This document shows, piece after piece, positions 41,750 through 58,499 of a stretch of DNA of 64,000 nt (the first letter of the stretch is position 1; each line of letters opens with the position of its first letter). The notes under the pieces were generated by a model. It had not been told where the DNA came from. It worked only from the letters and a program-made list of their open reading frames with translations, and did not search any database. Source of the stretch: Spirochaetia bacterium (lineage in GTDB: Bacteria; Spirochaetota; Spirochaetia; CADAEX01); NCBI GenBank assembly GCA_963662265.2, contig CAXXHA010000035.1, forward strand, positions 96,001-160,000, read 5' to 3'. The position numbers and the translations under genes are program-made.

Positions 41750-43039
41750 TCAGTCTACACAGATCTGTATTTCATTACTGGAGAGTTTTTTTCCGAAAGC
41801 ATCTCCCGGAATTGTGAGTTTTACCATTTCTCCCGGCAGGAGGTTTTTTTTCTTTACTGTGTAAATATCCCTGTCACCTGATTTAACCGAAAGAACACTG
41901 TCTCTGAATACTGTATTTACTCTCATGAAGACATCAAAACCTTTGCCGCTTTCAGGAGTTTTAATTTTCTGCGGTACTGTATATGAAATTCCATTTCCGT
42001 TTATTATGTTAATAACGGGGGTTGCGAATACTTTGTCATTCCCCTGTGTCTCTGTTTCTTCCTTTCTCTTTTTGTCCAGTGCTTTAATCCCTGCATGAAA
42101 GCCTGCCTTTCTGCTTTCCTCTGTGACAAAATCTACAAGGTCATGAACATGGACAACATTTCCGCATGCGAATATTCCGCTTACAGATGTCTCCATTTGT
42201 TCATTGACAACAAGACCTCCAGTCCTCTGGTCAATTTCTATGCCTGCTTCTCTTGAAAGTTCATTTTCCGGTATGAGGCCGACAGAAAGAAGAAGAGTGT
42301 CGCAGTCAAACTCGATTTCTGTCCCTTGAACCGGTTTTCTGTTTTTATCAACTCTTGATACTGTTATTTTCTCGATTTTCTCTTTCCCGTGAATGTTTGT
42401 AACTGTGTGTCCCAGGAAAAGCGGAATTCCGTAATGATCCAGGCACTGTACAATATTTCTTGAAAGACCATTGGAATAAGGCATTACTTCAACAACCCCT
42501 TTTACATCCGCTCCTTCAAGGGCAAGCCGCCTGGCCATGATAAGACCGATATCGCCTGAACCGAGTATGAAAACTTTTTTACCCACCATATACCCTTCAA
42601 TGTTTATAAACCGCTGGGCTGTTCCTGCTGTAAATATCCCTGCAGGTCTTGCGCCGGGTATGGCAATGGCTCCCCGTGTTCTCTCCCTGCAGCCCATTGC
42701 GAGAATTATCGATTTTCCGTGAACAGTCTGCATCCCGGTACTGCTTCCCAGGACTAAAACACTCTTTGATTCAGTTATTTTAAGCACCATTGTATCAAGC
42801 ATGAATTCAATGCCGGCTTCCTCTGCCATGTTTATGAACCTCTGGGCATATTCAGGTCCTGTAAGTTCCTCTTTAAATACATGAAGACCGAACCCGTTAT
42901 GAATACACTGCTGAAGAATTCCTCCCGGTTCAACATCTCTTTCTATAATCAATATTTTTGTACAGCCTGTTTTTTTTGCTTCTATCGCTGCAGCAAGTCC
43001 TGCAGGTCCCCCTCCGATTACAATCACCTCATAAGTCAT
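41750..43039 (-). CDS. NAD(P)/FAD-dependent oxidoreductase, G3PDH partner subunit (paralogue 2)
   Basis: GGGPAG, GGILQQCIHNGFG, AMGCRER, GSGDIG, CGNVVHVHDLVD. Confidence 0.9.
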   Translation of the reverse strand: MTYEVIVIGGGPAGLAAAIEAKKTGCTKILIIERDVEPGGILQQCIHNGFGLHVFKEELTGPEYAQRFINMAEEAGIEFMLDTMVLKITESKSVLVLGSSTGMQTVHGKSIILAMGCRERTRGAIAIPGARPAGIFTAGTAQRFINIEGYMVGKKVFILGSGDIGLIMARRLALEGADVKGVVEVMPYSNGLSRNIVQCLDHYGIPLFLGHTVTNIHGKEKIEKITVSRVDKNRKPVQGTEIEFDCDTLLLSVGLIPENELSREAGIEIDQRTGGLVVNEQMETSVSGIFACGNVVHVHDLVDFVTEESRKAGFHAGIKALDKKRKEETETQGNDKVFATPVINIINGNGISYTVPQKIKTPESGKGFDVFMRVNTVFRDSVLSVKSGDRDIYTVKKKNLLPGEMVKLTIPGDAFGKKLSSNEIQICVD

Positions 43040-43056
43040 TTTTTCCCCCTGTTAAT

Positions 43057-43119
43057 AAAAAAAGCCGGAGGGTCCTCTTCTGTTCTGAAGAAAACACCTC
43101 CGGCTCTCGTCTCTCCGCC
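43057..43119 (-). promoter_or_regulatory. GlpP-type antiterminator element plus terminator, copy 1
   Basis: GGCGGAGAGACGAGAGCC then AGCCGGAG/CTCCGGCT stem and T7. Confidence 0.8.
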
Positions 43120-43245
43120 GGATATATCAATATTTATTTTGTTGTTTCATCCGGTATTCTTTTTTATACCGGTACTGTTTTGCTTATATTTAACAGTAGT
43201 TTTCTGTTGCAGATCTCTGATTCTGCATACCCAGCTGTATATATT

Positions 43246-43596
43246 TCACATGTTTCTTGTTACAACTACATTCACCCCTGTATCAAATACATTTTCAAGA
43301 ACCACATCTCCCATGGTGACAGGCGAAGTCACTTCAACCTTGTTGATCAGCTTCATGATTTCAAACTTATACTTTTCAGGTATAGCTTTGTCTGTTTTTA
43401 CCGGTACTACCTTATGGATGCCTCCCCTTATTTTTACAGTTGAGCAGATCATTCTTGTAGGATTTGTAAGTTCCTCTTTTGCGTATAGAATCCCTCTTTT
43501 GCACTTATTGCCGGTTATTACAGGTTCTTCGGGAGTTCCCTCGATTTTAAGCCTGCATCCCATGGGGCATACAATACAGATAAGCTCATTTTTCAT
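43246..43596 (-). CDS. DUF1667 small CxxC subunit
   Basis: CIVCPMGC...GNKCKRG...PVKT. Confidence 0.9.
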   Translation of the reverse strand: MKNELICIVCPMGCRLKIEGTPEEPVITGNKCKRGILYAKEELTNPTRMICSTVKIRGGIHKVVPVKTDKAIPEKYKFEIMKLINKVEVTSPVTMGDVVLENVFDTGVNVVVTRNM

Positions 43597-43597
43597 T

Positions 43598-44866
43598 TCA
43601 GCCTTCCTCCTCAGACACAAGATTTATACTAATAACCCCTGTTGTATTTTCAAATGTCTCTTTTTTTACTGTTATTTTAATCATTTCTCCGGGGGTAAGA
43701 TGTCTCTCCTTGAATCTGGCAAGTTCCCGTCTGTTGTTTTCAAGAATAATCAATCTGTCGTTATAGACACGGTCGACTCTCATGAATATATCAAGCTTAT
43801 CAGGCAGGTTTGAATATCTGAATCTGTGCGGAACTGCATATGTGAGTCCTCCCGATGCTTTGAAGTATATATAATCCCCATCCCTTTTAAATTTTCCTTT
43901 AACATAGCTTGAAGCGTTTTTTCCGGCCCTTCTGCTTTCTGCAGTTACGAAATCCACAAGATCATGGACATGGACAACATTGCCGCATGCAAAAATACCT
44001 TCAACAGATGTTTCCATGCTCTCGTTCACAACAGGTCCACCTGTTTTCCTGTCTAGTTCTATACCTGCCTGTTTTGAGAGTTCATTTTCAGGTATCAGCC
44101 CTACAGAAAGAAGAACTGTATCGCATTCATATTCTTTCTCAGTTCCCGGGATAACCTGTTTGCTCATGTCAGTCTCTGCAATTATTACGCTTTCAACCCT
44201 TTCCTTTCCTTTTATCTCAACAATGTTGTGGCTCAAGAGGAGGGGGATGTCGTAGTGGTCAAGGCACTGAACAACATTTCTCGTTAGTCCCTTTGGAAAT
44301 GAGCTTCGCGCAACAACAGCTTTTACCTCACCTCCTTCGAGAACAATCCGTCTCGCCATGATCATCCCGATATCTCCTGATCCCAGTATTACCACCTTTT
44401 TCCCGACCATATAGCCTTCAATATTTATATACCGCTGTGCAGTCCCTGCTGTAAAAACACCTGCCGGTCTTTCCCCCGGGATTGATATAGCCCCTCTTGT
44501 CCTCTCCCTGCATCCCATGGCAAGAACAATTGATTCAGCGCTTATTTCTTTTTTACCGTGAGTATTCATTACCACAATCTCTTTACTGCTGTTTATTGAA
44601 GTAACTATTGTGTCGAGGAGTATTTCGATTTCATCATTAGTCGCCATGTTGATGAATTTCTGTGCATATTCAGGCCCTGTAAGTTCCTCCCTGAATTCGA
44701 ATAATCCGAAACCGTTATGGATACACTGCTGGAGAATTCCCCCCGGCTCTATATCCCTTTCAATGATGAGCACTCTGTCAATGCCGCTTCCTTTTGCTTC
44801 TATTGCAGCAGCAAGTCCTGCCGGACCTCCGCCGATTACAACAATATCGTATTTTTCTTTTTTCAT
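43598..44866 (-). CDS. NAD(P)/FAD-dependent oxidoreductase, G3PDH partner subunit (paralogue 1)
   Basis: Same motifs as 41750..43039; closely spaced within the operon. Confidence 0.9.
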   Translation of the reverse strand: MKKEKYDIVVIGGGPAGLAAAIEAKGSGIDRVLIIERDIEPGGILQQCIHNGFGLFEFREELTGPEYAQKFINMATNDEIEILLDTIVTSINSSKEIVVMNTHGKKEISAESIVLAMGCRERTRGAISIPGERPAGVFTAGTAQRYINIEGYMVGKKVVILGSGDIGMIMARRIVLEGGEVKAVVARSSFPKGLTRNVVQCLDHYDIPLLLSHNIVEIKGKERVESVIIAETDMSKQVIPGTEKEYECDTVLLSVGLIPENELSKQAGIELDRKTGGPVVNESMETSVEGIFACGNVVHVHDLVDFVTAESRRAGKNASSYVKGKFKRDGDYIYFKASGGLTYAVPHRFRYSNLPDKLDIFMRVDRVYNDRLIILENNRRELARFKERHLTPGEMIKITVKKETFENTTGVISINLVSEEEG

Positions 44867-44882
44867 GGCAAACGCCTCTCTG

Positions 44883-46310
44883 CTATTTTGTCTTTCCGGT
44901 CAGTATATAGGAATTCTTCTTCTCGAGAACAATTTCCTCCCGCGGTGTGTTAAGCTCTCTTGCGAGTATTTCCTGAACTTTCGGGCCGCAGAATCCACCC
45001 TGGCATCTTCCCATGCCTGGACGGCACCTCCGTTTTACTCCATCAAGTGTTTTTGCTCCAACCGGCCTGTGTATTGCATCAAGTATATCCCCTTCTGTGA
45101 TATTTTCACATCTGCAAATTATCCTGCCGTATAAGGGATTCTCTTTAAGAAGTTTTTTCTGTTCAGATTCGCTCCTCTCAAGAAAGAGTTTTCTTTCAAT
45201 ATTCGGATTGAAATCCTTCTTCTTTTTCATTGCCAGTCCCGCTTCTTCGAGAAGTTCAAGCACATAACGGGCTATTGCAGGGGCTGCTGTCAGGCCGGGA
45301 GACTTGATTCCCGCTACATCGAAGAAATTCTCAGTACCGGGAGCTTTTTTTATGATAAAATCTCCTGTATCCGGTTCTGCCCTCATTCCGGCAAAAGTCC
45401 TTATGCTGTTTCTTGTTGTTATTTCCGGGATCAGTTTCTTTGCCCCGCTGCTTGCCTTATCGAGCAGTTCTGAAGTTGTTGAAACATCTTCTGGATCTTC
45501 GAGATCGTCTGAAGAAGGGCCGAGTATCAGGTTCCCGTGAACAGTCGGTGTCACAAGTGTTCCTTTTCCCATTTTATCAGGGCACGGGAAAATAACTGAA
45601 TTAACCATACACCCTTCACATTTATCAAGCAGGAAGTACTGTCCCCTTCTGGGCTTTATTTTGAAATCCTCTTCTGCCGCCATATTGTGTATTTTGTCTG
45701 CAAATACGCCGGCAGCATTTACAACATATTCAGCTTCAACAGAATCTGAATAGCTTTTTATTATGTAATGAGTATCTTTTTTTTCGATTGACGATACACT
45801 GAAGTTGAGCTTGAGTTCACATCCGTTCATTACAGCGTTTTCAATCAGGGAAATTGTCAGGAGCATCGGATCAATTATTCCTGCTGTTTCAGCGAGCAGG
45901 GCCCCTTTTGCTTCCGGGTTTATATGGGGTTCCCTTTTTTTCAGTTCCCCGGCAGAGAGAATTTTCATTCCCTTTATTTTATTGTTTAGACCTCTCTGAT
46001 AGAGTTTTTTAATATGATCAATCTGTTCATCGTCATATGCAACTACGAGAGAACCTATTCTTTTAAACGGTACATCAAGTTCACTGCAGAGCCTGTCAAA
46101 CATGGGATTCCCCTCGGAATTGAATCTGGCCATCAGGGTGTTTTCTTCCGGATCATACCCGGCATGAATTATTGCGGAATTAGCTTTTGATGTTCCACAT
46201 GAAACATCATTTTCCTTGTCTATAACTATTACCTTGAGATTGAACCGGGAAAGATCTCTTGCAATTGCTGCTCCTGTGACTCCTGCTCCTATGATTGCAA
46301 CATCATACAT
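44883..46310 (-). CDS. FAD-dependent glycerol-3-phosphate dehydrogenase-like subunit with a C-terminal BFD-type 2Fe-2S domain
   Basis: GAGVTG, TSKANSAIIHAG, SPGLTAAP, CRCE...GRCQGGFC. Confidence 0.85.
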   Translation of the reverse strand: MYDVAIIGAGVTGAAIARDLSRFNLKVIVIDKENDVSCGTSKANSAIIHAGYDPEENTLMARFNSEGNPMFDRLCSELDVPFKRIGSLVVAYDDEQIDHIKKLYQRGLNNKIKGMKILSAGELKKREPHINPEAKGALLAETAGIIDPMLLTISLIENAVMNGCELKLNFSVSSIEKKDTHYIIKSYSDSVEAEYVVNAAGVFADKIHNMAAEEDFKIKPRRGQYFLLDKCEGCMVNSVIFPCPDKMGKGTLVTPTVHGNLILGPSSDDLEDPEDVSTTSELLDKASSGAKKLIPEITTRNSIRTFAGMRAEPDTGDFIIKKAPGTENFFDVAGIKSPGLTAAPAIARYVLELLEEAGLAMKKKKDFNPNIERKLFLERSESEQKKLLKENPLYGRIICRCENITEGDILDAIHRPVGAKTLDGVKRRCRPGMGRCQGGFCGPKVQEILARELNTPREEIVLEKKNSYILTGKTK

Positions 46311-46387
46311 ATAATATCCTCCAGAAAGGTATGCCGGATTACGGCACTATAAAATAACTTTAAACCAATTGATAAATCAAAAAAAGC

Positions 46388-46453
46388 AAAAAAAAGCCAG
46401 ATAAAAAGACACCTGTCCCGGTATCGTTTTATCTGGCTCTCTTTTCTCCAGCC
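46388..46453 (-). promoter_or_regulatory. GlpP-type antiterminator element plus terminator, copy 2
   Basis: GGCTGGAGAAAAGAGAGCC then a 12-bp AGCCAGATAAAA/TTTTATCTGGCT stem and T8. Confidence 0.85.
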
Positions 46454-46570
46454 ATGAAAACTATCATGATTTGATTTATTATATTATACCTGTTTATTCT
46501 TGTCAAATATATGTTACTATTAGCTTTAAACTACTAATTTTGATTTGATCCGGGGATATTTGTTCTGACT

Positions 46571-47713
46571 ATGATAATAAACATACTGAAATGGACAGGT
46601 TTTATTTATGCTTTGCTGCTGCTTGCAAGCCATGTTGCTGTACTTGCAGGTCTTGCTGTTGTGTTTCGAAAAGAGAATAAAGTAAAGCGATTAAAAAAAG
46701 ACACAGTCAAACACAGTGTTTCTGTAGTAATACCTGCACGTGATGAAGAGGCTAATCTGCCCAGGCTGTTCGCATCTCTCGAAAAACAGACATACAGCGA
46801 TTTTGAAATTGTGCTTGTAGATGACAGGTCGGAAGATGATACATATAAGGTAATGAAAAAATTCCAGTCGATACATCCTGACAGGGTGAAAATTATCAGG
46901 AATGAAAAGACTTTCTACAAAAAAAATCCAAAACAGATGGTTCTTGATATCGGAGCAAAAAATGCTTCAGGTGATATTCTCCTTTTTACAGATGCAGACT
47001 GCCGTGTTCCGGAAACATGGGTCGAGAGTATGTCGCATCCTTATAATGACGAGAAGACAGGGCTTGTATTCGGATCTGTGACAACAGGAGGAGGAAAAGG
47101 TCTTCTTGCTAATTTTCAGCGTTTTGATCACCTTCTGAGGTACCATTATACAGCAGCCTGTGCCGGTCTTAAAAATCCGACCGGGGGCTTCGGGAATAAT
47201 CTTTCGATCAGGGCAAAGGCTTTGTCTGATATCGGGGGATTTTCTGATATTGAATTCAGCGTTACTGAAGATGCCCAGCTTATTGCACGTGTCCGTGATA
47301 CAGGTAAATGGGTTATTGAAGCCAGATCTTCCTGGGATTCTACAGTGTTTACAACACCTGTAACTTCGTGGAAAGAGCTCTCTGTCCAGGAGCTCCGCTG
47401 GAGTACAGGTGCAGTGCATGCTCCTGACTGGAAAGCTTTTGCCGGATATGGTTTTGTAATGTACCAGCTTGCAACTGGTGTTTTTGCATTTATTCCCGCA
47501 CTTCTCAATCCCTTTTATTTCCACTTTCTTCTTTCAGGAATTTTAAGCATGCTTGTTGTTTCAACAGCAGTAGGGATACACCTGGGTATGGACAGGAAAT
47601 TCTGGTTTTATCTTGTGCCATCCCTTATAGTTGCAGAATTCCTGTTTCCAACTATTGTTCTCCTTGCAACATTCAAGCCTGTGATAATCTGGAAAGGGGA
47701 GAAGGTCTGCTAG
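46571..47713 (+). CDS. GT2 membrane glycosyltransferase
   Basis: VIPARDEE, DDRSED, FTDAD, TED, QELRW; N- and C-terminal TM helices. Confidence 0.88.
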   Translation: MIINILKWTGFIYALLLLASHVAVLAGLAVVFRKENKVKRLKKDTVKHSVSVVIPARDEEANLPRLFASLEKQTYSDFEIVLVDDRSEDDTYKVMKKFQSIHPDRVKIIRNEKTFYKKNPKQMVLDIGAKNASGDILLFTDADCRVPETWVESMSHPYNDEKTGLVFGSVTTGGGKGLLANFQRFDHLLRYHYTAACAGLKNPTGGFGNNLSIRAKALSDIGGFSDIEFSVTEDAQLIARVRDTGKWVIEARSSWDSTVFTTPVTSWKELSVQELRWSTGAVHAPDWKAFAGYGFVMYQLATGVFAFIPALLNPFYFHFLLSGILSMLVVSTAVGIHLGMDRKFWFYLVPSLIVAEFLFPTIVLLATFKPVIIWKGEKVC

Positions 47714-47831
47714 TTTGAGAACCGGAAGGCCTTTTTTCTTATAAAAGAAAAATCCGGATAGAATCTGTTCTCTTGATTCCTGTGTGAATGTGCTTGTAAA
47801 AATGCTATAATTAAGTTGTTGGAGATTCTTT

Positions 47832-48464
47832 ATGAAAATTATTGATTTGACTCATCCGTTATCTTCAGATATGCCTGTCTATCCAGGCACAGACCAGCCT
47901 CAGTTTAATTCCGGATGTACTTTTGAAAAAGACGGTTTCAGGGAAAAAGAGATAACAATGTTTTCTCATACCGGGACCCATATAGATGCTCCTGCCCACA
48001 TGCTTGAAAAGGGAAAGACCCTGGATAAATTCGGTACTGATAAATTTATTGGAAAAGGTTTTCTGCTTGACTGCCGGGGCAAGCCTGAAATTGATATTAA
48101 TCTGATTAAGGAACATGAAAAAAACATAAGGAAGGCAGATTTTCTTATCATAAATACAGGATGGAGCAGTTACTGGGGAATGGATAAATATTTTTCTGGA
48201 TTTCCTGTCCTGACACAAAAAGCTGCAAAGCTTGTTGCTGACTGCAGTCTTAAGGGATTTGGCTTTGATGCTATTTCTGCTGACCCGGTATCAACAGAAA
48301 GCTATGAAATACATAAAATACTGATGGCTCGGGAGATGATTCTGATAGAGAACCTTTGCAATCTTGACAGTATTAAGCATGAAAAATTTGTTTTTTCCTG
48401 TTTCCCCCTCAATATACAGGATGCTGACGGATCTCCTGTAAGGGCGGTTGCTCTTGCGGAATAA
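47832..48464 (+). CDS. Cyclase/kynurenine formamidase-like metallohydrolase
   Basis: HTGTHIDAPAH, IENL, DGSPVRA. Confidence 0.9.
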   Translation: MKIIDLTHPLSSDMPVYPGTDQPQFNSGCTFEKDGFREKEITMFSHTGTHIDAPAHMLEKGKTLDKFGTDKFIGKGFLLDCRGKPEIDINLIKEHEKNIRKADFLIINTGWSSYWGMDKYFSGFPVLTQKAAKLVADCSLKGFGFDAISADPVSTESYEIHKILMAREMILIENLCNLDSIKHEKFVFSCFPLNIQDADGSPVRAVALAE

Positions 48465-48582
48465 GCAAAACAGGATATTGATTGTTTCATGATTATATAT
48501 GGAACTCCTTTTTAAACTGCTTTTTTTTAATGAAAAAGTATAAAAAACCGCTTGTAATATAAAAAGTAAATGGTTCAGTTTA

Positions 48583-49149
48583 TTACATATACCATGTGTC
48601 GTATCGTGTTGTTGAAACGCTGCAGGCGCCGGCGTTGAGTGCTGCCATTATATCTTCCCTGTCTGTTATAAGCCCTCCCGCTATTACAGGAGTTGAAGTT
48701 GAATCTGAAAACTGCTTTATAACTTTAGGCATCAGTCCCGGAAGTATTTCAATCGCATCCGGTTTGTAATCTTTAATAGCCTTGAAGCCGGATTCTATGG
48801 AAAGTGAATCAAGAATGAAAAATCTCTGAACTACAAAAATATTCCTTTCCCTTGCTGCTTTTACCAGTGTTGTCTTTGTTGTTATAATGCCGTCAGTGTT
48901 AGTTGCATCTGCAAGATAATCAAGTGCGTGTACAGATCTTGCAAGTCCATCAACAAGGTCAAAATGGACAAAAGCAAGCTTCCCGGAATCTTTAATTTTT
49001 TTTACCATATCCGGAATTGTTGTTATTGTGGAAGTCAGTATAAATATTATTTCATTATCTGTATTGACCGCCTCTTTGATATCTTCTTCTGTTTTTACAG
49101 CAGGTATAATAGGATTGTTTCTGAATATTTCTATAAATTTTCTGTTCAT
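48583..49149 (-). CDS. glpP: Glycerol-3-phosphate-responsive antiterminator
   Basis: FVHFDLVDGL, GIITTK, QRFFILDS, EILPG, PVIAGGLI, SVSTT. Confidence 0.93.
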   Translation of the reverse strand: MNRKFIEIFRNNPIIPAVKTEEDIKEAVNTDNEIIFILTSTITTIPDMVKKIKDSGKLAFVHFDLVDGLARSVHALDYLADATNTDGIITTKTTLVKAARERNIFVVQRFFILDSLSIESGFKAIKDYKPDAIEILPGLMPKVIKQFSDSTSTPVIAGGLITDREDIMAALNAGACSVSTTRYDTWYM

Positions 49150-49272
49150 ATTTTAATATTATTTATTATGAAAATGATGTCAAACCTTTAGTTGCTGAAA
49201 TAACGATAAAAAATAATCAAAAAACATTTGACAGATCAGAAAGGCGCATGTTTAAATATTATAGCAATACGA

Positions 49273-49340
49273 GGCAGAGAGTAAGAGAGCCGTAGAGTAT
49301 GTCAGATAGGGATATCTGTATATTCTACGGCTCTTTTTTT
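49273..49340 (+). promoter_or_regulatory. GlpP-type antiterminator element plus terminator, copy 3
   Basis: GGCAGAGAGTAAGAGAGCC then GAGCCGTAGAGTAT/ATATTCTACGGCTC stem and T7; TTGACA at 49228. Confidence 0.85.
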
Positions 49341-49461
49341 GATAAATATTTGTTGAGTTTTTAGAGTTTTAATGAAAAATTAAAAAATTCTTACGATAAC
49401 TTAATTTGGGTATATAATGTATTTATGTAAAAATACATTTACAAATCAAAAGGGGGATTTA

Positions 49462-50550
49462 ATGAAACGGTTATTTTTAATTGTTATGTGTCTCTTCATT
49501 CTTGCTTCCGGTGTCTTTGCCGGCGGAAAAAAGGAAGCAGCTGAAGAAGAAAACAAAGTTCTCAGAGTTCTCTCATGGTCAGGTTATATTCTTCCTGAAC
49601 AGGCTGAGCAGTTTAAAGAGGAAACAGGAATCACACTTGAAATTACTCATTCAAGTAATGAGGAAATGATTTCTAAACTCAGAGCTACAAGAGGCGGCGG
49701 ATATGATCTTGCACAGCCTTCACAGGACAGAATCTCATCAATGGTTCAGCAGTACAAGCTGTATCAGCCTATTGATTATTCACAGATCAATGAAGATCAG
49801 ATTGAGCCAAGTATGCTTAAAGCTGTTAAGGCAAATACACTTGTAGACGGAAAGTCATATGCTGTTCCTCATGTATTCGGAACTTCAGGCCTTATTGTTA
49901 ACAGCGAAAAAGCTCCTGATGTTAAAGACTACAAAGATCTTCTTGATCCCAAATACAAGGGAAGAGTTGCATACAGAATGAAAAGACCTACAATTCTTGC
50001 CATGGGTTTTTCACTCGGTTATGATCCTTTTGCTCTTTTTAGTGACAAAGAAGCTTACCAGAAATACCTTGATGATGTAGAAGCAAAACTCATAGAAGGT
50101 AAAGAAGTAGTTAAAAACTACTGGGAAAACGGAGATGCTCTTCTTGAATCAATGAGATCAGGTGAAGTATGGGCAGCAATGGGCTGGGAACAGCAGGCAT
50201 GGAAACTCTATAAGGAAAATCCTGCAATTGACTATGTAGCTCCAGCAAGCGGTTCAATGCAGTGGATTGATACTTTTGCTCTTCCTGCAAAATCAGAAAA
50301 TGTTGCAGGTGCTTATAAACTTATAAACTTCCTTCTTGATCCTGAGCAGGCTGCTGCTTTTACAAATGCTGAAAACTATGGTACAGCATCAAAAGATGCA
50401 GCCAAGTACCTTTCTCCTGAAGCTGCAGCTAACTTTGACAGGTGTTTTACTCCGGAAGTTATGGCTAACATGAATAGTTATCCTCCTGTTCCTCCAGGAC
50501 TTGAAGAAATGGAAGGTAAAGCTATGGATAGAATCAGGGCTGCTAAATAA
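49462..50550 (+). CDS. PotD/PotF-like ABC substrate-binding protein
   Basis: Signal peptide; SWSGY, SNEEMISKL, YDLAQPS, WIDTFALP. Confidence 0.88.
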   Translation: MKRLFLIVMCLFILASGVFAGGKKEAAEEENKVLRVLSWSGYILPEQAEQFKEETGITLEITHSSNEEMISKLRATRGGGYDLAQPSQDRISSMVQQYKLYQPIDYSQINEDQIEPSMLKAVKANTLVDGKSYAVPHVFGTSGLIVNSEKAPDVKDYKDLLDPKYKGRVAYRMKRPTILAMGFSLGYDPFALFSDKEAYQKYLDDVEAKLIEGKEVVKNYWENGDALLESMRSGEVWAAMGWEQQAWKLYKENPAIDYVAPASGSMQWIDTFALPAKSENVAGAYKLINFLLDPEQAAAFTNAENYGTASKDAAKYLSPEAAANFDRCFTPEVMANMNSYPPVPPGLEEMEGKAMDRIRAAK

Positions 50551-50604
50551 GTAAAAAACTTTTCTGACATAGTGCAGGGCATCTGCACCATATCAACTTA
50601 ATAA

Positions 50605-50676
50605 GGCAGAGAATATGAGAGCCGGATATTGAGGATGCTGAGTTTGTTTCAGGCACCCCTGTGTCCGGTTTTTTTT
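50605..50676 (+). promoter_or_regulatory. GlpP-type antiterminator element plus terminator, copy 4
   Basis: GGCAGAGAATATGAGAGCC then AGCCGGATAT/GTGTCCGGTT stem and T-run. Confidence 0.8.
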
Positions 50677-51254
50677 CTGTGTGCAGGGAATACTACATTG
50701 TGATTTTATTCGCTGTAAATTACAGATGTCTGTACCTGTTTTGCTGTTTTCAGGCAGTTTAATCTGTTAAAGATATCTGTTAAAGAAGCATTTAAATAAT
50801 GCTGTTTAAGATGAAGATTAAAAGTTATAATATTTAAGTAATAAAGCATTATTTTTATATATAATTTTAATCAGCAACACTGCTTCCGGCAGTAGACTGG
50901 TACAGCTGATCATAAGGTTTCTGTGCAGTATTATTGCATAAGCTTTATGAAAAAAGTACAGGGTTGCTGGTCTGTAGGGTGTGGATTTTCATGGCAGGTT
51001 TAATTCCATCTAACCTCTACAGGATAATAAGTTTCCAAAAGGTGCATAGTTCATATTTTGTGCATAGCGCCTTCTGGGCCGTAAACCTGCCGCGCGAATA
51101 AAAACGAAGGAATGGACAGCAGGGAAGTTTGTGATATTTCATTTCCTTATACGGCTTTTTAATGAGGGAAATATCCGGTTGATATTCTTACAGGGTAAAA
51201 ACTGCCAGCAGATCTTTACCTGTACTGTTCAATTTTGAATGAAGGTGGTAACAA

Positions 51255-52361
51255 ATGCAGATTGATTTGTCTGTGAAAGAGGTGCAGAAACGATTCGGAC
51301 AGTTTACAGCAGTGGATAACGTCTCTTTCGATGTGGAGGATGGTAAATTCTTTTCAATTCTGGGTCCTTCAGGATGCGGAAAAACAACTCTTCTTAGAAT
51401 GATTGCCGGTTTTTACGAACCGTCAGCAGGAAAAATAGAAATTCGCGGCCAGGATATGGCCAATGTTGAACCGAATAAAAGGCCTGTAAATCTTGTATTT
51501 CAACATCTTGCACTTTTTCCGATGATGGATGTCAAGGAAAATATAGCATTCGGTCTGAAACGACGGGGGGAAAAAGGCCCCGGAGTTTATAAAAAAGTAA
51601 ATAATCTGCTGGAAAGAGTAGGGCTTCCTGACCAGGGCAACAAGAGGATAAATCAGCTTTCAGGAGGTCAGAAACAGAGAGTTGCTATTGCAAGGTGTCT
51701 TATTCTTGAACCTGCAGTACTTCTACTGGATGAGCCTCTCGGAGCACTGGACCTTAAACTTAGAGAACATATGAAAGTTGAACTTAAAAAACTCCAGGTT
51801 GAGGTTGGTACAACTTTCGTTTATATCACCCATGACCAGTCGGAAGCTCTTGTTATGAGTGACAAGGTTGCAGTAATGAACCAGGGGAAATTCGAACAGG
51901 TAGATACCCCTCAGAATCTCTACGGTAAACCTGCTTCTTCGTTTGTTGCCCAGTTTGTAGGCGATAATAACCAGTTTATCGGAAAGCTTTCGAAGAATGA
52001 GAAAGGGCAGTTCTTTGTTGTTACAGATGACAATAATAAATATTTCATAGACTCTTCATGTGATGTAAATGAAAATGACAGGGTTGAAATGTATATAAGA
52101 CCTGAAGCTATGATAATCAATCCATCTTCAGATAAGGAGCTTAACAAGATTAAAGCTGATGTAAAAGCAATTCTCTTTGACGGCGGAAACAGCCGTCTTC
52201 TTGTAAATCCTCTTGGAGGCTCAAAGGATATGATTGTTTCACTTCCTCAGAACAGGCAGTTTGATCATATAAAATCAGGCGACAGTGTTGAAATCGGATG
52301 GGATTCCGCTTCTGCAGCATGTTTTAAGGAGTCAGGAGTAAAAACCTATGATGAACTCTAA
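51255..52361 (+). CDS. PotA-like ABC ATP-binding protein
   Basis: GPSGCGKT, LSGGQKQR, LLLDEPLGALD, C-terminal TOBE region. Confidence 0.93.
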   Translation: MQIDLSVKEVQKRFGQFTAVDNVSFDVEDGKFFSILGPSGCGKTTLLRMIAGFYEPSAGKIEIRGQDMANVEPNKRPVNLVFQHLALFPMMDVKENIAFGLKRRGEKGPGVYKKVNNLLERVGLPDQGNKRINQLSGGQKQRVAIARCLILEPAVLLLDEPLGALDLKLREHMKVELKKLQVEVGTTFVYITHDQSEALVMSDKVAVMNQGKFEQVDTPQNLYGKPASSFVAQFVGDNNQFIGKLSKNEKGQFFVVTDDNNKYFIDSSCDVNENDRVEMYIRPEAMIINPSSDKELNKIKADVKAILFDGGNSRLLVNPLGGSKDMIVSLPQNRQFDHIKSGDSVEIGWDSASAACFKESGVKTYDEL

Positions 52362-53217
52362 GAAAACAAAAATCAGATGGGGATTTATAATGTTTTTTAC
52401 TCCGGTGGCGCTCTGGCTTGGATTATTAATCATTGTTCCCCATCTTGATCTTTTAAGGATGTCTTTTGTAGGTTCTGATTATCTTGGTGAATCAGGATTT
52501 ACATTGAATCATTACAAGAGCTTTTTTACAGAGCCGATATACTGGCTTACATTTGTCAGGACAGCCATGTATTCTATCATTGTAACTGCAATTGTGCTTA
52601 TTATATCGCTGCCTGTCTCTTTTTATGTAACAAAGATTGCCAATTTCAAGGTTCAGGGTTTTCTGATGGTCCTCCTGCTCCTCCCTTTCTGGGTAAGTGA
52701 GCTTATAAGGGTTTACGGTTGGATGATCCTCCTCAGGGAAAGCGGCGTTATTAATAAATTCATGCTTGCCCTCGGGCTTTGGGATAAGCCTATTGAAATG
52801 CTTTATAACGATACAGTTATGATTATGGGGCTTGTATACACAACAATACTTTTCATGGCAGTCCCTGTAATCGGTGTAATGGAAGGTCTTGATGACTCAT
52901 ATATTGAGGCTGCATATGATCTTGGAGCAAAGAAAATAACAATCTGGAGAAAGATTATAATACCTCACTGCATGCCTGGAATTATGTCGGGAAGTATCAT
53001 GGTATTCATGCTTGTGCTTGGAAGTTATCTGACTCCGAACCTCATGGGAGGTAAGAACTCTCTCTGGTTTACACAGCAGATTTACAACCAGTTTATCCTT
53101 TATTTTAACTGGAACCAGGGATCAGCATTCGGATTTATGCTCCTTTTTATGTCTTCAATAATTATCTGGGCAGCTCTCAAATTAAGTGGTCAGCAGCTGA
53201 GTAAGGTGGTGAAATAG
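52348..53217 (+). CDS. PotB-like ABC permease
   Basis: LPFWVSELIRVYGW, IEAAYDLGA. Confidence 0.92.
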   Translation: MMNSKKTKIRWGFIMFFTPVALWLGLLIIVPHLDLLRMSFVGSDYLGESGFTLNHYKSFFTEPIYWLTFVRTAMYSIIVTAIVLIISLPVSFYVTKIANFKVQGFLMVLLLLPFWVSELIRVYGWMILLRESGVINKFMLALGLWDKPIEMLYNDTVMIMGLVYTTILFMAVPVIGVMEGLDDSYIEAAYDLGAKKITIWRKIIIPHCMPGIMSGSIMVFMLVLGSYLTPNLMGGKNSLWFTQQIYNQFILYFNWNQGSAFGFMLLFMSSIIIWAALKLSGQQLSKVVK

Positions 53218-53218
53218 T

Positions 53219-54076
53219 ATGATTAGAACATTACCAAGCAGCAGACTGTATAAAAACAGTTTTCATATTTTTATAATTATTTATTTTGTGGTCCTGTTTG
53301 CACCGCTTCTTGTTACATGTGTGCTTGCATTCAACGATTCAATGTTTCCGTCACTTCCATGGAACGGTTTTACTCTTGACTGGTTTTTCAGTGACGGTCC
53401 GGAAAAGATAGGTATTTTTCATGATAATACAAACCTGAGAAGTATATTTGTATCATTCAAGGTTGCAATTGCAGTTTCTATTCTTTCAACAATAGTAGGA
53501 ACATGCGCGGCATTTCTGTTTGAGCAGGAAGATTTCAGATTCAAGAATGCTCTTTATTTTCTTATGATAGCACCGCTTGTAATTCCCGGTGTTATTCTTG
53601 GTATATCAATTCTTGTATTTACAAACAACTTCGGCCTTTTTCTTGAAGAAACTTTCGGTCTTGATGTTGAGTTTCTTATGCCGGGATACTGGCTGGTTGT
53701 TTTAGGACAGTTTTCATTTATCACAACAATGGTAGCTCTTGTGGTTTCCGCAAGGCTCAAGAAATTTGACAGGACTCTTGAAGAGGCAGCATATAATCTT
53801 GGAGCCAACAGGCTTGAAGTTATATGGTTTATAACTCTTAAATACCTGAGGCCTTCAATCATTGGCGGGGCTGCTCTCGCATTCCTGATGTCGTTTGAAA
53901 ATTTCAATACGACACTGTTTCTTACTGGATCAGAATCCACTCTTCCCATTACCCTGTATCTTCAGGTAAGGGACGGTTCGACTCCTGTAATAAACGCGAT
54001 TTCATTCCTGCTTATTGTTACAACATCGATATTTGCTGTAATAAACCTTTATGCTTCTTCAAAGAACAAGGAGTAG
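53219..54076 (+). CDS. PotC-like ABC permease
   Basis: GFTLDW, LEEAAYNLGA, TLPI, PVINAIS. Confidence 0.92.
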   Translation: MIRTLPSSRLYKNSFHIFIIIYFVVLFAPLLVTCVLAFNDSMFPSLPWNGFTLDWFFSDGPEKIGIFHDNTNLRSIFVSFKVAIAVSILSTIVGTCAAFLFEQEDFRFKNALYFLMIAPLVIPGVILGISILVFTNNFGLFLEETFGLDVEFLMPGYWLVVLGQFSFITTMVALVVSARLKKFDRTLEEAAYNLGANRLEVIWFITLKYLRPSIIGGAALAFLMSFENFNTTLFLTGSESTLPITLYLQVRDGSTPVINAISFLLIVTTSIFAVINLYASSKNKE

Positions 54077-54270
54077 ACCGGAATTTTTTAAACGCTTCTG
54101 TTCCTGCCTGGGTAGAGCCCGGAAATCAGCAGTAATGGAAGCAGAAGGATTAAGATTATTCGCAGGGCGGGTATGATCCCTTATCAGGGGGATTCCTGAA
54201 CTGCTCTGTAAAGATTTTGTCAGGTATTGTTAAGGGTGATAGGCCTGCAACACAAAAAATCCTTACAGAA

Positions 54271-54305
54271 CCATAACCGCGAAGCTTGCGGCGGGGTTGT
54301 TGATT
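54271..54305. repeat. Short dispersed repeat, copy 3 of 3
   Basis: CCATAACCGCGAAGCTTGCGGCGGGGTTGTTGATT. Confidence 0.6.
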
Positions 54306-54341
54306 CCTGTATGTTTTGATAAACTTACAGGAAATTATTAA

Positions 54342-54405
54342 GGCTGAGATTAAGAGAGCCGGGCACAGAATGGTACTTAGGGATACCTGTGTCCGGCTTT
54401 TTTTT
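54342..54405 (+). promoter_or_regulatory. GlpP-type antiterminator element plus terminator, copy 5
   Basis: GGCTGAGATTAAGAGAGCC then AGCCGGGCACAG/CTGTGTCCGGCT stem and T8. Confidence 0.85.
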
Positions 54406-54418
54406 AGGGATGGTGAAA

Positions 54419-55645
54419 ATGGATAACAAAATTGGTGAATTTTTTGAAACTTTGCGAAGCGGAATTTCTGCTCTTAAGAATCATGAATCTAAAGAGCTTT
54501 TTCTTCTTCATCATAATGACTCTGACGGACTGACTTCCGGGGCTATTCTTTTGAAAGCTTTCGAGAGGGAAGGGTATGATGTTAAAAGGTTTTCCCTGGA
54601 AAAACCGTATCCGGATGTTCTGAAAAAGCTTTTTGATGAAAACAGCGGAAAAATAATTGTCTTTGCAGATTTTGCAGGAAAAATAGCTCCCATGCTTTCA
54701 GAATTCAACAGGGGAAAAAATCTTGTTCTTGTTCTGGACCATCACAGGGCAGAACCTGTTTTGAATGATAATACAGTACTTAACCTTGATCCTGATCTTT
54801 TCGGACTCAAGGGAGACAGGGATATTTCCGCTTCTGTGGTATGTTATCTGTTTGCCAGAGAACTGAACAGCATGAATGAAGATCTTGTTCATATTGCCGC
54901 ATTCGGCGGAATCGCAGATTTTTATTATCGTGATGAGGATGTTCATTCTTTCAACAGGGAATGTGTTGAAGATGCATGTGCAATCGGATTAATGAGGATT
55001 GAGTACAGAGACGGCAAAGAGCGGTTTATTATACGCCTGGGGGACAGGGAAGTTGATGTTGTGGAATTCTACCCTCTTCTCGATACACTCGGCGGAGTCG
55101 GATTTTATGACAGGGGGCCTGAGAAGGGGATTGATCTGCTTCTAAACGGTCTTGAGGATAGACATGTGGAAGAAATCAATAAACTGATGTCTGTCAAGGA
55201 AAAGATATTTGAAAAAGAAATAAGCAGGATGATGAAAAAAGACTACCATGAAACTGATGACATAATCTGGTTTGATGTTGAAGACAGGTTTGCTCCCATG
55301 GGAGTTAAAATGATCGGGGTTTTCTGCGAGGAAATTGTTGAAGCAGAGTACATAGATCAGAATAAATATCTTGCAGGTTTTCAGAGAATCCCTGACACAG
55401 TTCCCGGATTCGGCGAACTTGAAATGGGACAGACAAAAGTTTCAATGAGAACTTCTGCAGTTCTTTCAAAGAGGATCCTGGAAAAGGAAATTCCCGGGCT
55501 TAATGATTTTCTTCCGGAAGCAACTGTCAACCTCGGCGGTTTTGCAGATGCATGCCACAGTATTGCTGCTGCAACTACAATAGATATCGGCATGGAAGAA
55601 AAGCTGATGGATGAAACACAGAGAACATTAAACACGAAGAAATAA
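54419..55645 (+). CDS. DHH-family phosphoesterase
   Basis: HHNDSDG, FADF, LDHH, GGIAD, C-terminal ACHSIAAA (DHHA1 GGHxxAA variant); start ATG 54419 or 54410. Confidence 0.8.
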   Translation: MDNKIGEFFETLRSGISALKNHESKELFLLHHNDSDGLTSGAILLKAFEREGYDVKRFSLEKPYPDVLKKLFDENSGKIIVFADFAGKIAPMLSEFNRGKNLVLVLDHHRAEPVLNDNTVLNLDPDLFGLKGDRDISASVVCYLFARELNSMNEDLVHIAAFGGIADFYYRDEDVHSFNRECVEDACAIGLMRIEYRDGKERFIIRLGDREVDVVEFYPLLDTLGGVGFYDRGPEKGIDLLLNGLEDRHVEEINKLMSVKEKIFEKEISRMMKKDYHETDDIIWFDVEDRFAPMGVKMIGVFCEEIVEAEYIDQNKYLAGFQRIPDTVPGFGELEMGQTKVSMRTSAVLSKRILEKEIPGLNDFLPEATVNLGGFADACHSIAAATTIDIGMEEKLMDETQRTLNTKK

Positions 55646-55680
55646 TTCCAAAACTTTATTTTGGGCATTCTTTCTTCGTG

Positions 55681-55868
55681 TAGCGACAGAGACTTTTCGC
55701 AAGAAAAGTGCTCGATAGCGTTTAATGTACGAATAATTCAGAGACTTCTCCGCAGGAGAAGTGCTCGAACGAAAGAGACTTTTCCTATGGAGAAGTGTTC
55801 GAAAAATGTCAAAAAAGGTTTTGACATAAGCGGCAGGGGCTTCCTGAAAGGAAGTACTCAAAAGCGAA
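55681..55868. repeat. Cluster of four REP-like hairpins (same family as 2444-2590)
   Basis: TAGCGACAGAGACTTTTCGCAAGAAAAGTGCTCGATAGCG and three variants. Confidence 0.85.
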
Positions 55869-55954
55869 CTGATAGCGATATTAAATTGAAATTGATTCGG
55901 GAACTTTGTTATTAGAAGTACCGTAATTATTACTGTTAACGACAGGAGGATAAA

Positions 55955-56926
55955 ATGGGTAAAGGAAGCGCATTTGGAAAAAACATTCTGATAGGGGATC
56001 AGTTTGTACTTAACGGAGTACCGGCAATTGTATCAGCATTGCCGTATAAAACAGAAACAATTGTTGAAAGAGATGAATCTGTAGACGGATTTGTTGTTGA
56101 GGACAACAGGGTAGAAGTTCCCGGATATAAGAAGAAAAAAGAAGCTTCTTGCAGAAAATCATACGAAATGATGATCGAAGCTATGAGTATTGATCTCAAG
56201 AAGAATCCTATGAGAATAAAAGTTGGCGGTGATCTTCTTGCAGGAAGCGGAGTAGGAGCAAGCGGTGCTATAAGCGTTTCTTTCGGTAAGGCATGCAACG
56301 ATGAATTCAATCTTGGCTATGATGTCCTTGAAGAAAACAGAATCGGCTGGGTTGGAGAGCATGCATATCACGGTATTCCAAGCGGTGTAGATAATACTGC
56401 TTCTACTTTCGGCGGACTCATGATGTATATGATCAGGGACGGTAAGAAAATGTATGAAAGAATTGTTCCTGCCAAACCTCTTTATGTTGTACTTGCAAAC
56501 AGCGGAATAACCTACAACACAGCTCTTCTTGATGATCATATTGACGGTCTTATTGAAAATAATCCGGGCAAATTCTATACAAGTCTTAATAAAGTTACTT
56601 CACAGGTTTATGAAATGAAGAAAGCAATTGAAACAGGTGATCTTCAGGCAGTGGGCGATATTATGGTTGAAAACCATAATATCCTTATTGATATGGACCT
56701 CAGTGCTGACAGGCTTATTGAACTCTGTGACAGGGCAATAAAGATGGGTGCATACGGTGCAAAACTCACAGGCGGCGGAAGAGGGGGGTACATGGTGTCT
56801 CTCGTTGAAAGCCCTGAAATGCAGGATAAGATTGCATCAGATTTTGAAAAGGATGATATTCCTGTGATCAAGGCGCAGCTGGGTCTTGGCGCTATAGATG
56901 ATGCTGATTTCAGGCTTCTTGTATAG
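55955..56926 (+). CDS. GHMP kinase, mevalonate-kinase-like
   Basis: GKNILIGDQFV, GSGVGASGA, HGIPSGVDN, GAKLTGGGRGG. Confidence 0.8.
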   Translation: MGKGSAFGKNILIGDQFVLNGVPAIVSALPYKTETIVERDESVDGFVVEDNRVEVPGYKKKKEASCRKSYEMMIEAMSIDLKKNPMRIKVGGDLLAGSGVGASGAISVSFGKACNDEFNLGYDVLEENRIGWVGEHAYHGIPSGVDNTASTFGGLMMYMIRDGKKMYERIVPAKPLYVVLANSGITYNTALLDDHIDGLIENNPGKFYTSLNKVTSQVYEMKKAIETGDLQAVGDIMVENHNILIDMDLSADRLIELCDRAIKMGAYGAKLTGGGRGGYMVSLVESPEMQDKIASDFEKDDIPVIKAQLGLGAIDDADFRLLV

Positions 56927-57374
56927 GAGGTAATGTCAGGGATTTTGTTTCCGGTTATTTATTCCGGAGCAAATTAAATAATGATATATGCATATACAGC
57001 TTGCTGCATATGCTGCCGTAAAGATTCTCCCTGTGAAGGGGAGAATCTTCCGGTAAAAATAATTCTGTAAATATGCGGCTCATGTTTGCAGATGAAACAG
57101 TGGTGGAAAAAATATTTTCTGATTTCAGGGTATTGTGGTGGTGCCCTGGATTCAGGAAATGCTGAATACTTTTGTATTCGGCAGAGTATTTTTTATAAGA
57201 AGTAAAACTGTCTGGAGGCTTGTAATTAACAGCAGTTTTACTTCTGAAAATAAAAGTGATGAACCGGTGTTTATTAGAACACGGGCAAAACGTTAGTCGC
57301 TAAGAAAAAGGCGAGTTTATAGTGCTGTTGAAACCGGTTTATATGGATTAAAAATGGAAAAGAGAGGAGAAAAT

Positions 57375-58499
57375 ATGGCATATCAGGATCAGTATAAAGA
57401 TTGTGAATGGGTCGAATTCGAAGTACTTGAAAGCTTCATGAAAGATGCTCTTGTGGGAATAGGTGTACCGGAAGAGGATGCAAAAATAATAGGTGATGTT
57501 CTTATTGAATCAGACAAGAGAGGAATAGACTCTCACGGTATAGGCCGTCTCAAACCGATTTACATTGAACGAATTGATGCGGGTATACTCAACCCGGAAA
57601 CAAAAATTGATATTGTTACAGACGAGAAAGCTGTAGCTGTTCTTGACGGGAACAACGGTATGGGGCATGTTGTGTCACATAAGGCAATGAGCATGGCAAT
57701 TGATAAGGCCAGGGAATATGGTATCGGTATGACTGTTGTCAGGAATTCAAACCATTACGGTATTGCAGGGTATTATCCGCTCATGGCTATTAAAGAGGAT
57801 ATGCTGGGTATAACAGGAACCAATGCAAGGCCCTCTATTGCACCGACTTTCGGAGTTGAAAACATGCTTGGGACAAATCCCCTGACAATCGGTGTTCCGA
57901 CAGATGAAGAATTCCCGTTTGTAATTGATGCAGCAACAAGTGTTACACAGAGGGGAAAAATCGAGGTTTATGACAGGGCAGGAAAGGAACTCCCCCCCGG
58001 ATGGGTTATAGGGAATGACGGTACAAGCCGTGAAGATACCAAACAGGTACTTGTTGACCTGACAAAGGGAAAGGCTGCTCTTACCCCGATGGGCGGACTT
58101 GGAGAGGCCGGAGCAGGGTATAAAGGATACGGATGGGCAACTGCTGTTGAAATACTTTCAGCTGCTCTTCAGGGCGGATCATACCTTAAGGCTCTAAACG
58201 GATATGATGAGGATGGAAACAGAATCCCCTATCCTCTGGGACATTTCTTCATAGCAATTAATCCTGAAATGTTTTTGGGAAAGGACCTTTTCAAGACAAT
58301 TGCAGGTTCAATCTGCCGGGAACTCAGGAATTCCAGAGTTGCTCCTGGCCAGGACAAGATATATACAGCAGGGGAAAAGGAATGGCTTGCATGGCAGTAC
58401 AGAAAAGACCATGGCTGTCCTGTTCCTAAAGTGCTTCAGAATGAAATGATTGAATTAAGAGACCGATTTAATCTTGATTATAAGTTTGATTTTGAATAG
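57375..58499 (+). CDS. Ldh_2-family (malate/lactate/sulfolactate) dehydrogenase
   Basis: RGIDSHG, NSNHYG, GTNP, GYKGYG. Confidence 0.9.
   Translation: MAYQDQYKDCEWVEFEVLESFMKDALVGIGVPEEDAKIIGDVLIESDKRGIDSHGIGRLKPIYIERIDAGILNPETKIDIVTDEKAVAVLDGNNGMGHVVSHKAMSMAIDKAREYGIGMTVVRNSNHYGIAGYYPLMAIKEDMLGITGTNARPSIAPTFGVENMLGTNPLTIGVPTDEEFPFVIDAATSVTQRGKIEVYDRAGKELPPGWVIGNDGTSREDTKQVLVDLTKGKAALTPMGGLGEAGAGYKGYGWATAVEILSAALQGGSYLKALNGYDEDGNRIPYPLGHFFIAINPEMFLGKDLFKTIAGSICRELRNSRVAPGQDKIYTAGEKEWLAWQYRKDHGCPVPKVLQNEMIELRDRFNLDYKFDFE

Follow-up and report, generated by a model that had tools for sequence, protein, structure and literature searches.

A candidate GlpP-linked antitermination regulon for glycerophosphodiester uptake and oxidation in a spirochaete

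What does a transporter that resembles a polyamine importer do in the middle of a set of genes for glycerol 3-phosphate (G3P) metabolism? The question is raised by a locus in the genome of a Spirochaetia bacterium (GCA_963662265.2; 3.77 Mb, 90.6% complete), of which a stretch of 64,000 nt, here called the window, was analysed (positions 96,001 to 160,000 of contig CAXXHA010000035.1, or C35:96001-160000; C14 and C16 are two further contigs). The locus holds genes for a GlpP-family antiterminator, a predicted three-subunit G3P dehydrogenase, an ATP-binding cassette (ABC) transporter of PotABCD type, and a DHH-family phosphoesterase followed by a GHMP kinase (Table 1), and copies of a single leader element precede many of them. 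In our view the locus is probably, with a probability of about 0.6, a G3P-triggered feed-forward regulon for the uptake and oxidation of glycerophosphodiesters. Both the regulon and the transporter assignments are predictions that are supported by gene context and by residues.

The putative regulon is defined by its leaders. Reading of the intergenic DNA gave five copies, of which a repeat search alone gave the three on the plus strand. Each consists of GGC, a purine-rich stretch and the box GAGAGCC, which leads without a gap into a GC-rich hairpin followed by a T-run; the box is invariant across the five copies and overlaps the 5' foot of the terminator. A strict regular expression matches exactly these five places in the 3.77-Mb genome, an IUPAC pattern has four matches against none for its reversed control, and a looser pattern adds one match on contig C14 and four that look like chance. 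The minimum-energy fold is a strong terminator in all five (leaders 1 to 5: -36.3, -27.8, -27.3, -33.7 and -34.2 kcal/mol, with z-scores of -8.1, -3.6, -5.0, -7.7 and -5.7), so that a GGC...GCC hairpin would seem too weak to form unaided. In an alignment of 20 leader sequences from the window and its relatives, RNAalifold finds 14 pairs, seven of them with compensatory changes, and G.GAGCC at the foot of the stem never varies, while the GGC-purine 5' half differs between copies. A box that the hairpin does not need, and that nevertheless overlaps its 5' foot, has what appears to be the anatomy of a protein-read antiterminator.

The same leaders are found in relatives. In the numbering used here, L0xx and L160 are loci from the species collection, L022-L026 are the five closest relatives of the window locus, and L007 is contig C14 of the genome itself. 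The relatives carry leaders before the same genes as the window; the position of leader 2, between the genes for the binding protein and the ATPase, is matched in L022, L023, L025 and L026, and the extra FngB paralogue with a leader of its own recurs in L026. When a covariance model trained on the 20 aligned sequences was run over 80 transporter-family loci with a combined length of 1.07 Mb, all 17 strong matches fell in L022-L026 (14 of them training sequences and three new), with weaker new matches in L024 and L031, three echoes on the opposite strand, and no strong match in the remaining 75 loci; in 75 loci of the DHH family (958 kb) the model had no match. Leader 5, itself a training sequence, is matched at 3.2e-8. 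No Rfam family reaches its gathering score in the window, and nothing credible appears around the leaders at E ≤ 1. The preliminary description of this DNA had placed glpP, the dehydrogenase genes, the transporter and the DHH gene all behind copies of the element. The genes are all there and the five leaders are real, but glpP itself is not behind one, nor are the glycosyltransferase and cyclase-like genes that lie between fngA and glpP. The idea of a regulon linked to GlpP and marked out by a common leader is upheld as a prediction, and glpP lies inside the locus in the window and in four of the five closest relatives.

Family membership of the regulator is clear: GlpP matches PF04309 over positions 1-173 of 173 with 215.8 bits against a cut-off of 27, and its PDB matches are 3kts (8.2e-31) and 1vkf (8.5e-20). 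In Bacillus subtilis the leaders of glpD, glpT and glpFK are described as consisting of a promoter, a GlpP site and a terminator in the 5' untranslated region (PMC9604022). The likeness to that system of G3P-dependent antitermination lies in the PF04309 protein, in a leader that combines a promoter and an intrinsic terminator with a conserved site, and in the presence of an uptake system and a G3P dehydrogenase among the putative targets. The differences are that one locus here has five leaders, two of them inside operons; that FngABC, a PotD-type ABC importer and the DHH-GHMP pair stand where Bacillus has glpD, glpFK and glpTQ; that the host is a spirochaete, not a Firmicute; and that one genome has two GlpP paralogues with matched leader variants. 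The second paralogue, GlpP2, is 66% identical to GlpP of the window and is encoded on contig C14 in an operon (L007 7434-11055) that comprises a variant leader, a second substrate-binding protein (SBP2), a cytoplasmic glycerophosphodiester phosphodiesterase (GDPD), a HAD-IIA hydrolase and GlpP2. The leader of this operon is constructed like those of the window, except that GTGT and GTGA take the place of GAGA. The two proteins, with GAGA and GTGT leaders, respectively, might act in the same cell as protein-RNA switches orthogonal to each other, a natural specificity swap. SBP2 is 56% identical to the substrate-binding protein (SBP) of the window, and its operon has neither a permease nor an ATPase of its own. 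The permeases of the window have no close paralogues in the genome (the next best are 26-28% identical), and a further close PotB/PotC set is missing, so that the permease of the window is the probable docking partner of SBP2.

The preliminary description had compared the three flavoprotein genes to the G3P dehydrogenase cluster of Thermococcus, and the comparison holds: three adjacent, overlapping genes with PF01266 plus PF04324, PF07992 and PF07892 have the domain content and the gene order of FngABC, and the trio matches, as far as sequence can tell, an FngABC-type G3P oxidoreductase. FngABC of Pyrococcus furiosus is described as an electron-bifurcating, ferredoxin-dependent NAD G3P oxidoreductase (PMC13689815, 2026), in which FngA is the FAD-containing G3P dehydrogenase, FngB the FAD/NAD(P) domain protein and FngC the DUF1667 protein, and whose genes are clustered with a GDPD gene and glpK (PMC13689815). 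The same trio of a DAO and BFD protein, an FAD/NAD(P) oxidoreductase and a DUF1667 protein is found in the window, but the bacterial version adds an FngB paralogue with its own leader, 74-75% identical in nucleotide sequence to the window fngB (43598-44866), and the genome has a second FngABC-like set at C16:55485-58664 (37%, 50% and 31% identity), about 7 kb from a true glpK (C16:47312-48787). The FngA-like protein scores 363 bits with the model of type 2 G3P oxidase, below its cut-off of 460, and its nearest solved relative is L-alpha-glycerophosphate oxidase (PDB 4x9m, 6e-59).

What, then, does the importer carry? By family it belongs with polyamine transporters, in that the nearest solved relatives of the SBP are all PotD or PotF (PDB 8y5h, 8.1e-36; 1pot, 9.9e-33), and PotABCD has the same fold family and gene set. 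The curated models for polyamine, phosphonate and Ugp transport all remain far under their cut-offs, however: the SBP scores 130.6 bits with the PotD equivalog NF007048 (cut-off 582) and 97.9 with that of PotF (cut-off 636), the ATPase scores 352.9 with PhnT2 (457.7), 332.8 with PotA (482) and 303.5 with UgpC (432), and both permeases stay below every equivalog cut-off. No UgpB model is among the NCBIfam matches of the SBP, which places it outside UgpBAEC (CUT1). In PotD the three amines of spermidine are bound by E36, E171 and D257 (PMC4096761); aligned to PotD of Escherichia coli (8y5h), the SBP has G41, T177 and D270 at these positions, so that two of the three acids are gone, and Arg172 and Arg175 stand beside the lost Glu171. 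G41, R172, R175 and D270 are invariant in all 30 of the 30 family members compared.

Gene context points the same way. The SBP family has 4337 matches at E ≤ 0.001; identity does not drop below 62% among the best 120, which, where named, are called spermidine/putrescine or extracellular solute-binding proteins. It has 370 confirmed loci in the species collection, in Spirochaetota, Synergistota, Atribacterota, Cloacimonadota, Desulfobacterota and Pseudomonadota, and the counts that follow refer to the best 80 of these and to neighbours within 10 kb. An ATPase gene follows the SBP gene in 75, and at least one glycerol-phosphate gene is a neighbour in 32: GDPD in 17 (within 3 kb in eight), DHH or GHMP in 14, FngA in eight, true GlpK in five and GlpP in four. 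Of the neighbouring GDPDs, the 16 that are full length (the seventeenth, in L071, is cut off), like the GDPD of contig C14, have 232-277 residues, and their catalytic HRG motif falls within residues 1 to ~25. This leaves no room for a signal peptide, so that they are cytoplasmic and must meet the diester inside the cell, as UgpQ does. A Pfam scan of further neighbours, covering 101 of 295 frames in loci L022-L066, adds a choline/ethanolamine kinase gene directly upstream of the transporter in L039, L051 and L053 (Atribacterota or Cloacimonadota), PhnJ near the transporter in L046, and a set of glutamine synthetase-like (GS-like), peptidase C26 and iron-containing alcohol dehydrogenase (Fe-ADH) genes in L041, L045 and L049, with a partial set in L037 and L044; this set matches the ethanolamine gamma-glutamylation operon described in PMC10132767. 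A quick tree of the SBP sequences shows a single tight family in which these contexts are intermixed and SBP2 forms a long branch.

From gene context and the loss of the acidic ligand residues of PotD, the importer is best read as a stand-in for GlpT or Ugp, as had been proposed, and its best reading is uptake of a glycerophosphodiester, with an amino-alcohol head favoured. The ranking of ligands favours the glycerophosphodiester; free G3P and glycerol seem less likely and polyamines least likely. The proposed job would be the same as that of UgpBAEC-UgpQ in Escherichia coli, an ABC importer coupled to a short cytoplasmic GDPD, but here the binding protein and permeases are of the PotD/PotBC lineage, not CUT1, and control would be by antitermination, not by Pho; compared with PotABCD, E36 and E171 are replaced and the gene context is that of glycerol-phosphate metabolism. 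There is a precedent for glycerol-phosphate binding in a family annotated otherwise in GpxB, a PhnD-family binding protein for G3P and glycerol 1-phosphate (G1P; PMC12718374), although the GpxB family (TC 3.A.1.9) differs from that of the SBP, which has no such chain among its PDB matches at E ≤ 0.001. In the literature we found no description of a glycerophosphodiester importer of the PotD family. Also in keeping with the preliminary description, searches of the genome place no glpF, glpK, glpT or GDPD gene in the window. GlpK and GDPD matches lie elsewhere, with three GDPD genes in all, one of them in the SBP2-GDPD-HAD-GlpP2 operon of C14; MIP/GlpF and GlpT are unmatched throughout the 90.6%-complete genome, in which ugpB was not specifically searched for.

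The DHH phosphoesterase and the GHMP kinase belong together. The DHH protein belongs to a family of ~403 residues with 2143 matches, the best 120 all at least 49% identical, and 382 confirmed loci in Spirochaetota, Chloroflexota, Desulfobacterota and Atribacterota. Its only Pfam match is PF01368, the Pfam DHHA1 model being unmatched. In an alignment of 30 members, none departs from HHNDxDG, D84, D107-H108-H109 and a C-terminal GGFxDACH; these we take to be DHH motifs I-IV and a GGGH-like motif of DHHA1 type, which puts the protein in the superfamily. Residues 8-195 resemble archaeal RecJ/GAN (PDB 5x4h, 2.9e-28; also 5ghr), and the C-terminal half has no sequence match in the PDB search. Alike as the N-terminal domains are, the equivalog models stay under their cut-offs (archaeal RecJ 135.5 of 360 bits, GAN 100.1 of 850, recJ 20.6 of 396.9); with no RecJ, NrnA or GdpP equivalog reached and no nucleic-acid gene context, a RecJ or nanoRNase assignment appears not to apply. 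Context was counted in the best 80 of the 382 loci, of which three end too early, leaving 77 testable for the kinase: the GHMP kinase directly follows the DHH gene in 72 and is lacking in five. Of the 72, 68 satisfy a strict rule, three were recognized by inspection, and one is a single 718-residue frame with both DHH and GHMP (L160 7977-10130, from a Chloroflexia genome), which could reflect either genuine gene fusion or faulty assembly; a search for fused proteins of at least 715 residues found no other, which is weak evidence. Neighbours of the DHH gene in the 80 loci include HAD-IIA (35), GDPD (28) and a PotC-like permease (21), and in L022-L025 DHH-GHMP is followed by a GDPD gene at a distance of 1-3.5 kb. 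Anaerolineales loci also hold a small GT2 and an AAA-like protein. The spacer between the two genes (55645-55955) measures 310 nt in the window against 29 nt in L021 and carries four copies of a ~40-nt hairpin repeat, of REP-like look, that the genome carries on 13 or more contigs.

The kinase is mevalonate-kinase-like but is not a mevalonate kinase. It scores 142.4 bits with TIGR00549, below the cut-off of 163.05, and resembles the mevalonate kinase of Leishmania (2hfs, 193 bits), whose catalytic Lys, Asp, Ser and Glu it retains. Glu24-His25, strictly conserved in mevalonate kinase according to PMC1851959, from which the residue roles are taken, is Asp-Gln in the DHH-linked kinases (68 of 68 and 63 of 68, respectively), in which Val202 is changed to Asp in 65 of 68 and Thr283 to Gly in 66 of 68. 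HMG-CoA reductase was not found in the 90.6%-complete genome, in which IspH is present. The score under the cut-off, the changed signature residues and the missing reductase speak together against mevalonate. The pair is thus predicted to comprise an active phosphoesterase and an active kinase for a polar substrate other than mevalonate, and it would act beside GDPD rather than in its place. Our best guess for its job is an ATP-dependent step on the part of the molecule that is not G3P, or on a diester that GDPD refuses; one possibility is that the kinase phosphorylates a free hydroxyl on the diester or its alcohol, and that the DHH protein, as a diesterase or phosphatase, then splits the product.

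In the regulon that we envisage, each leader would by default fold into an intrinsic terminator, at the start of or within one of five transcription units. G3P-loaded GlpP would hold the weak GGC...GCC hairpin, withholding the foot of the terminator, and RNA polymerase would read on into the genes for the periplasmic binding protein, the ATPase and two permeases, FngABC, the extra FngB, and the DHH protein and GHMP kinase. The importer, to judge by the context of its whole family, would be an analogue of Ugp on a PotD scaffold, and its cargo would be deacylated phospholipid head groups, most likely glycerophosphoethanolamine (GPE) or glycerophosphocholine (GPC), and possibly G3P. Cytoplasmic UgpQ-like GDPDs encoded elsewhere in the genome would release G3P, which would be both the inducer of the regulon and its fuel, with FngABC oxidizing it to dihydroxyacetone phosphate with NAD and ferredoxin. 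DHH-GHMP would be a separate, widely conserved two-enzyme module that works alongside GDPD.

It is tempting to ask whether less is going on. The repeats might be ordinary terminators or attenuators, alike by common descent and never read by GlpP, and it is true that the GGC-purine half varies between copies and that L024 has leaders with no glpP within 10 kb. We nevertheless consider this improbable, given that an invariant 7-nt box that the hairpin does not need stands beside stem positions that covary freely, that the leaders lie upstream of genes and even inside an operon and are restricted to loci of the glpP-bearing clade, and that a matched variant of the box occurs with the paralogous GlpP2. 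A different proposal, made in the preliminary description, was that the DHH protein is a glycerophosphodiesterase that replaces GlpQ and frees G3P from GPC or GPE. DHH proteins are phosphoesterases, all catalytic motifs are intact here, the gene lies behind a GlpP-type leader, and the window has no GDPD gene; however, the genome does have three, one of them beside SBP2 and GlpP2, GDPD genes lie close to the DHH loci of relatives and of the wider family, and the near-constant partnership with the kinase would be left unexplained, the DHH protein being half of a conserved pair. For these reasons we find the substitution unsupported and consider it improbable.

As for the cargo, an importer of free glycerol or of another polyol, which GlpK would turn into the G3P that induces GlpP, would suit L027-L029, where a DeoR regulator gene lies upstream and GlpK directly after the permeases (true orthologues with 552-573 bits in L027 and L029; in L028 the frame is split, with 379 and 60 bits). 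It would also suit a genome that has GlpK and lacks GlpF, and pockets with aromatic residues, Asp and Arg might bind polyols as well. But the commonest linked enzyme is a cytoplasmic GDPD, which needs an imported diester, the choline/ethanolamine kinase and the ethanolamine-type catabolic neighbours would have no explanation, and no GlpP-type leader was seen upstream of the glpK of this genome, on C16; a polyol thus seems an unlikely cargo. Nor are we much inclined towards an amine (polyamine, ethanolamine or 2-aminoethylphosphonate), with the GlpP regulon reflecting co-use of head-group nitrogen, even though the solved relatives, the equivalent of D257 with its aromatic box, PhnT2 as the best model of the ATPase, the GS-like and C26 neighbours and the PhnJ of L046 would all be at home in such a system. 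Two of the three amine-binding acids have been lost and two invariant arginines gained nearby, the polyamine and phosphonate equivalogs are far from being reached, and the links to GDPD, GlpK, FngABC, GlpP and DeoR in 32 of 80 loci would be out of place.

Several observations weigh against a glycerophosphodiester regulon. In the pocket, D270 and the aromatics W39, W242, W268 and Y306 are retained as in amine binders, and the pocket assignments come from a single pairwise alignment. GS-like and C26 enzymes are also used in putrescine catabolism. In 48 of the 80 SBP loci, many of them on short contigs, none of the glycerol-phosphate genes is a neighbour, and GlpK right after the permeases in L027-L029 would suit plain glycerol uptake equally well. 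For the leaders, a G3P-responsive GlpP that reads them is inferred from association only, their likeness to the glp leaders of Bacillus is one of build, no GDPD gene stands behind a leader of the window type, and the covariance scan of the genome itself, which covered 150 of 2674 candidates, gave good scores to the six training sequences alone, with E ≥ 0.1 for the rest. Finally, a ugpB gpxB double mutant of Phaeobacter is reported not to grow on G3P or G1P (PMC12718374). In Phaeobacter sp. MED193, Table 1 of PMC10132767 gives a PotA/PotD pair (MED193_11419/11424) as phosphate-stress induced and PhoB-dependent, and by locus tag it lies near glpR (MED193_11439; PMC10132767). This system may belong to the SBP family and, if its PotD is orthologous to the SBP, free G3P would not be the ligand.

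If the SBP does take glycerophosphodiesters, thousands of 'spermidine/putrescine transporter' labels would be wrong (4337 matches at the threshold given above), the importers concerned would sit in anaerobic spirochaetes, Synergistota, Atribacterota and others, and it would bring to light a route by which phospholipid head groups are recycled in sediments, guts and digesters. The PotD-like family, which may be systematically mislabelled as a polyamine importer, would then come after UgpB and GpxB as a third independent origin of binding of glycerol phosphate or its diesters; that this is so, and that DHH-GHMP is at the same time an undescribed ATP-dependent route for head groups, is a tentative proposal that we would sooner doubt than assert. 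GlpP antitermination, Ugp-like uptake and FngABC are all known parts, and it is their combination here that makes a new variant. The layout with five leaders would be a compact case of one antiterminator that separately doses a binding protein, a permease, a dehydrogenase and accessory enzymes. No reaction has been assigned to the widespread DHH-GHMP pair, and a locus that places it under what we propose to be G3P control narrows the range of candidate substrates.

Table 1. Features of the locus, in window coordinates. Window proteins were assigned by family scans against Pfam and NCBIfam. The SBP frame opens at 49417, and its likely start at 49462 comes from alignment with SBP2; the likely DHH start at 54419 lies 3' of the T-run of the leader 3 terminator.
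Feature	Coordinates	Strand	Basis
FngB-like FAD/NAD(P) oxidoreductase, extra paralogue (429 aa)	41750-43039	-	PF07992 2e-37
Leader 5, before extra FngB paralogue	43050-43125	-	box and terminator, strict-pattern match
FngC-like DUF1667 subunit	43246-43620	-	PF07892 2.1e-32
FngB-like FAD/NAD(P) oxidoreductase subunit	43598-44866	-	PF07992 1.2e-38
FngA-like FAD G3P dehydrogenase (DAO) with BFD [2Fe-2S] domain	44883-46310	-	PF01266 1.2e-73, PF04324 1.3e-14
Sigma-70-like promoter (46506-46478), then leader 4 before fngA	46385-46506	-	promoter scan 12/12
GT2/GT21-like glycosyltransferase, between fngA and glpP	46571-47713	+	family scan
Cyclase-like protein	47832-48464	+	family scan
glpP, G3P-responsive antiterminator family	48583-49149	-	PF04309 3.5e-64
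Leader 1, before SBP gene	49263-49340	+	strict-pattern match
PotD-like substrate-binding protein (SBP)	49462-50550	+	SBP_bac_8 1.1e-33
Leader 2, between SBP and ATPase genes (putative intra-operon conditional terminator)	50595-50680	+	strict-pattern match
ABC ATPase with TOBE domain	51255-52361	+	PF00005 6.2e-38, TOBE_2
PotB-like permease	52348-53217	+	PF00528
PotC/PotI-like permease	53219-54076	+	PF00528
Leader 3, before DHH gene	54332-54405	+	strict-pattern match
DHH-family phosphoesterase, ~403-aa family	54419-55645	+	PF01368 29.6 bits
GHMP kinase, mevalonate-kinase-like	55955-56926	+	PF00288 and PF08544

Some smaller features of the locus and its surroundings are worth recording. A non-coding insertion of ~425 nt (50810-51235) separates leader 2 from the ATPase gene; it is missing in the closest relative, L026, occurs once in the genome and matches no Rfam family. 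The position of the GT2/GT21-like gene, which has no leader, is syntenic in L022-L024, L026, L031 and L042. Upstream, at a distance of 2.5 kb from the locus, is a gene for a patatin-like phospholipase (37984-39282; PF01734, 1.1e-35), whose role as a source of substrates, raised in the preliminary description, is speculative. On the other side, after the GHMP kinase gene, an Ldh_2 gene (sulfolactate/malate dehydrogenase-like) is followed by a malic enzyme gene (window 57354-60041), and an Ldh_2 gene is also close by in L026 and L030.

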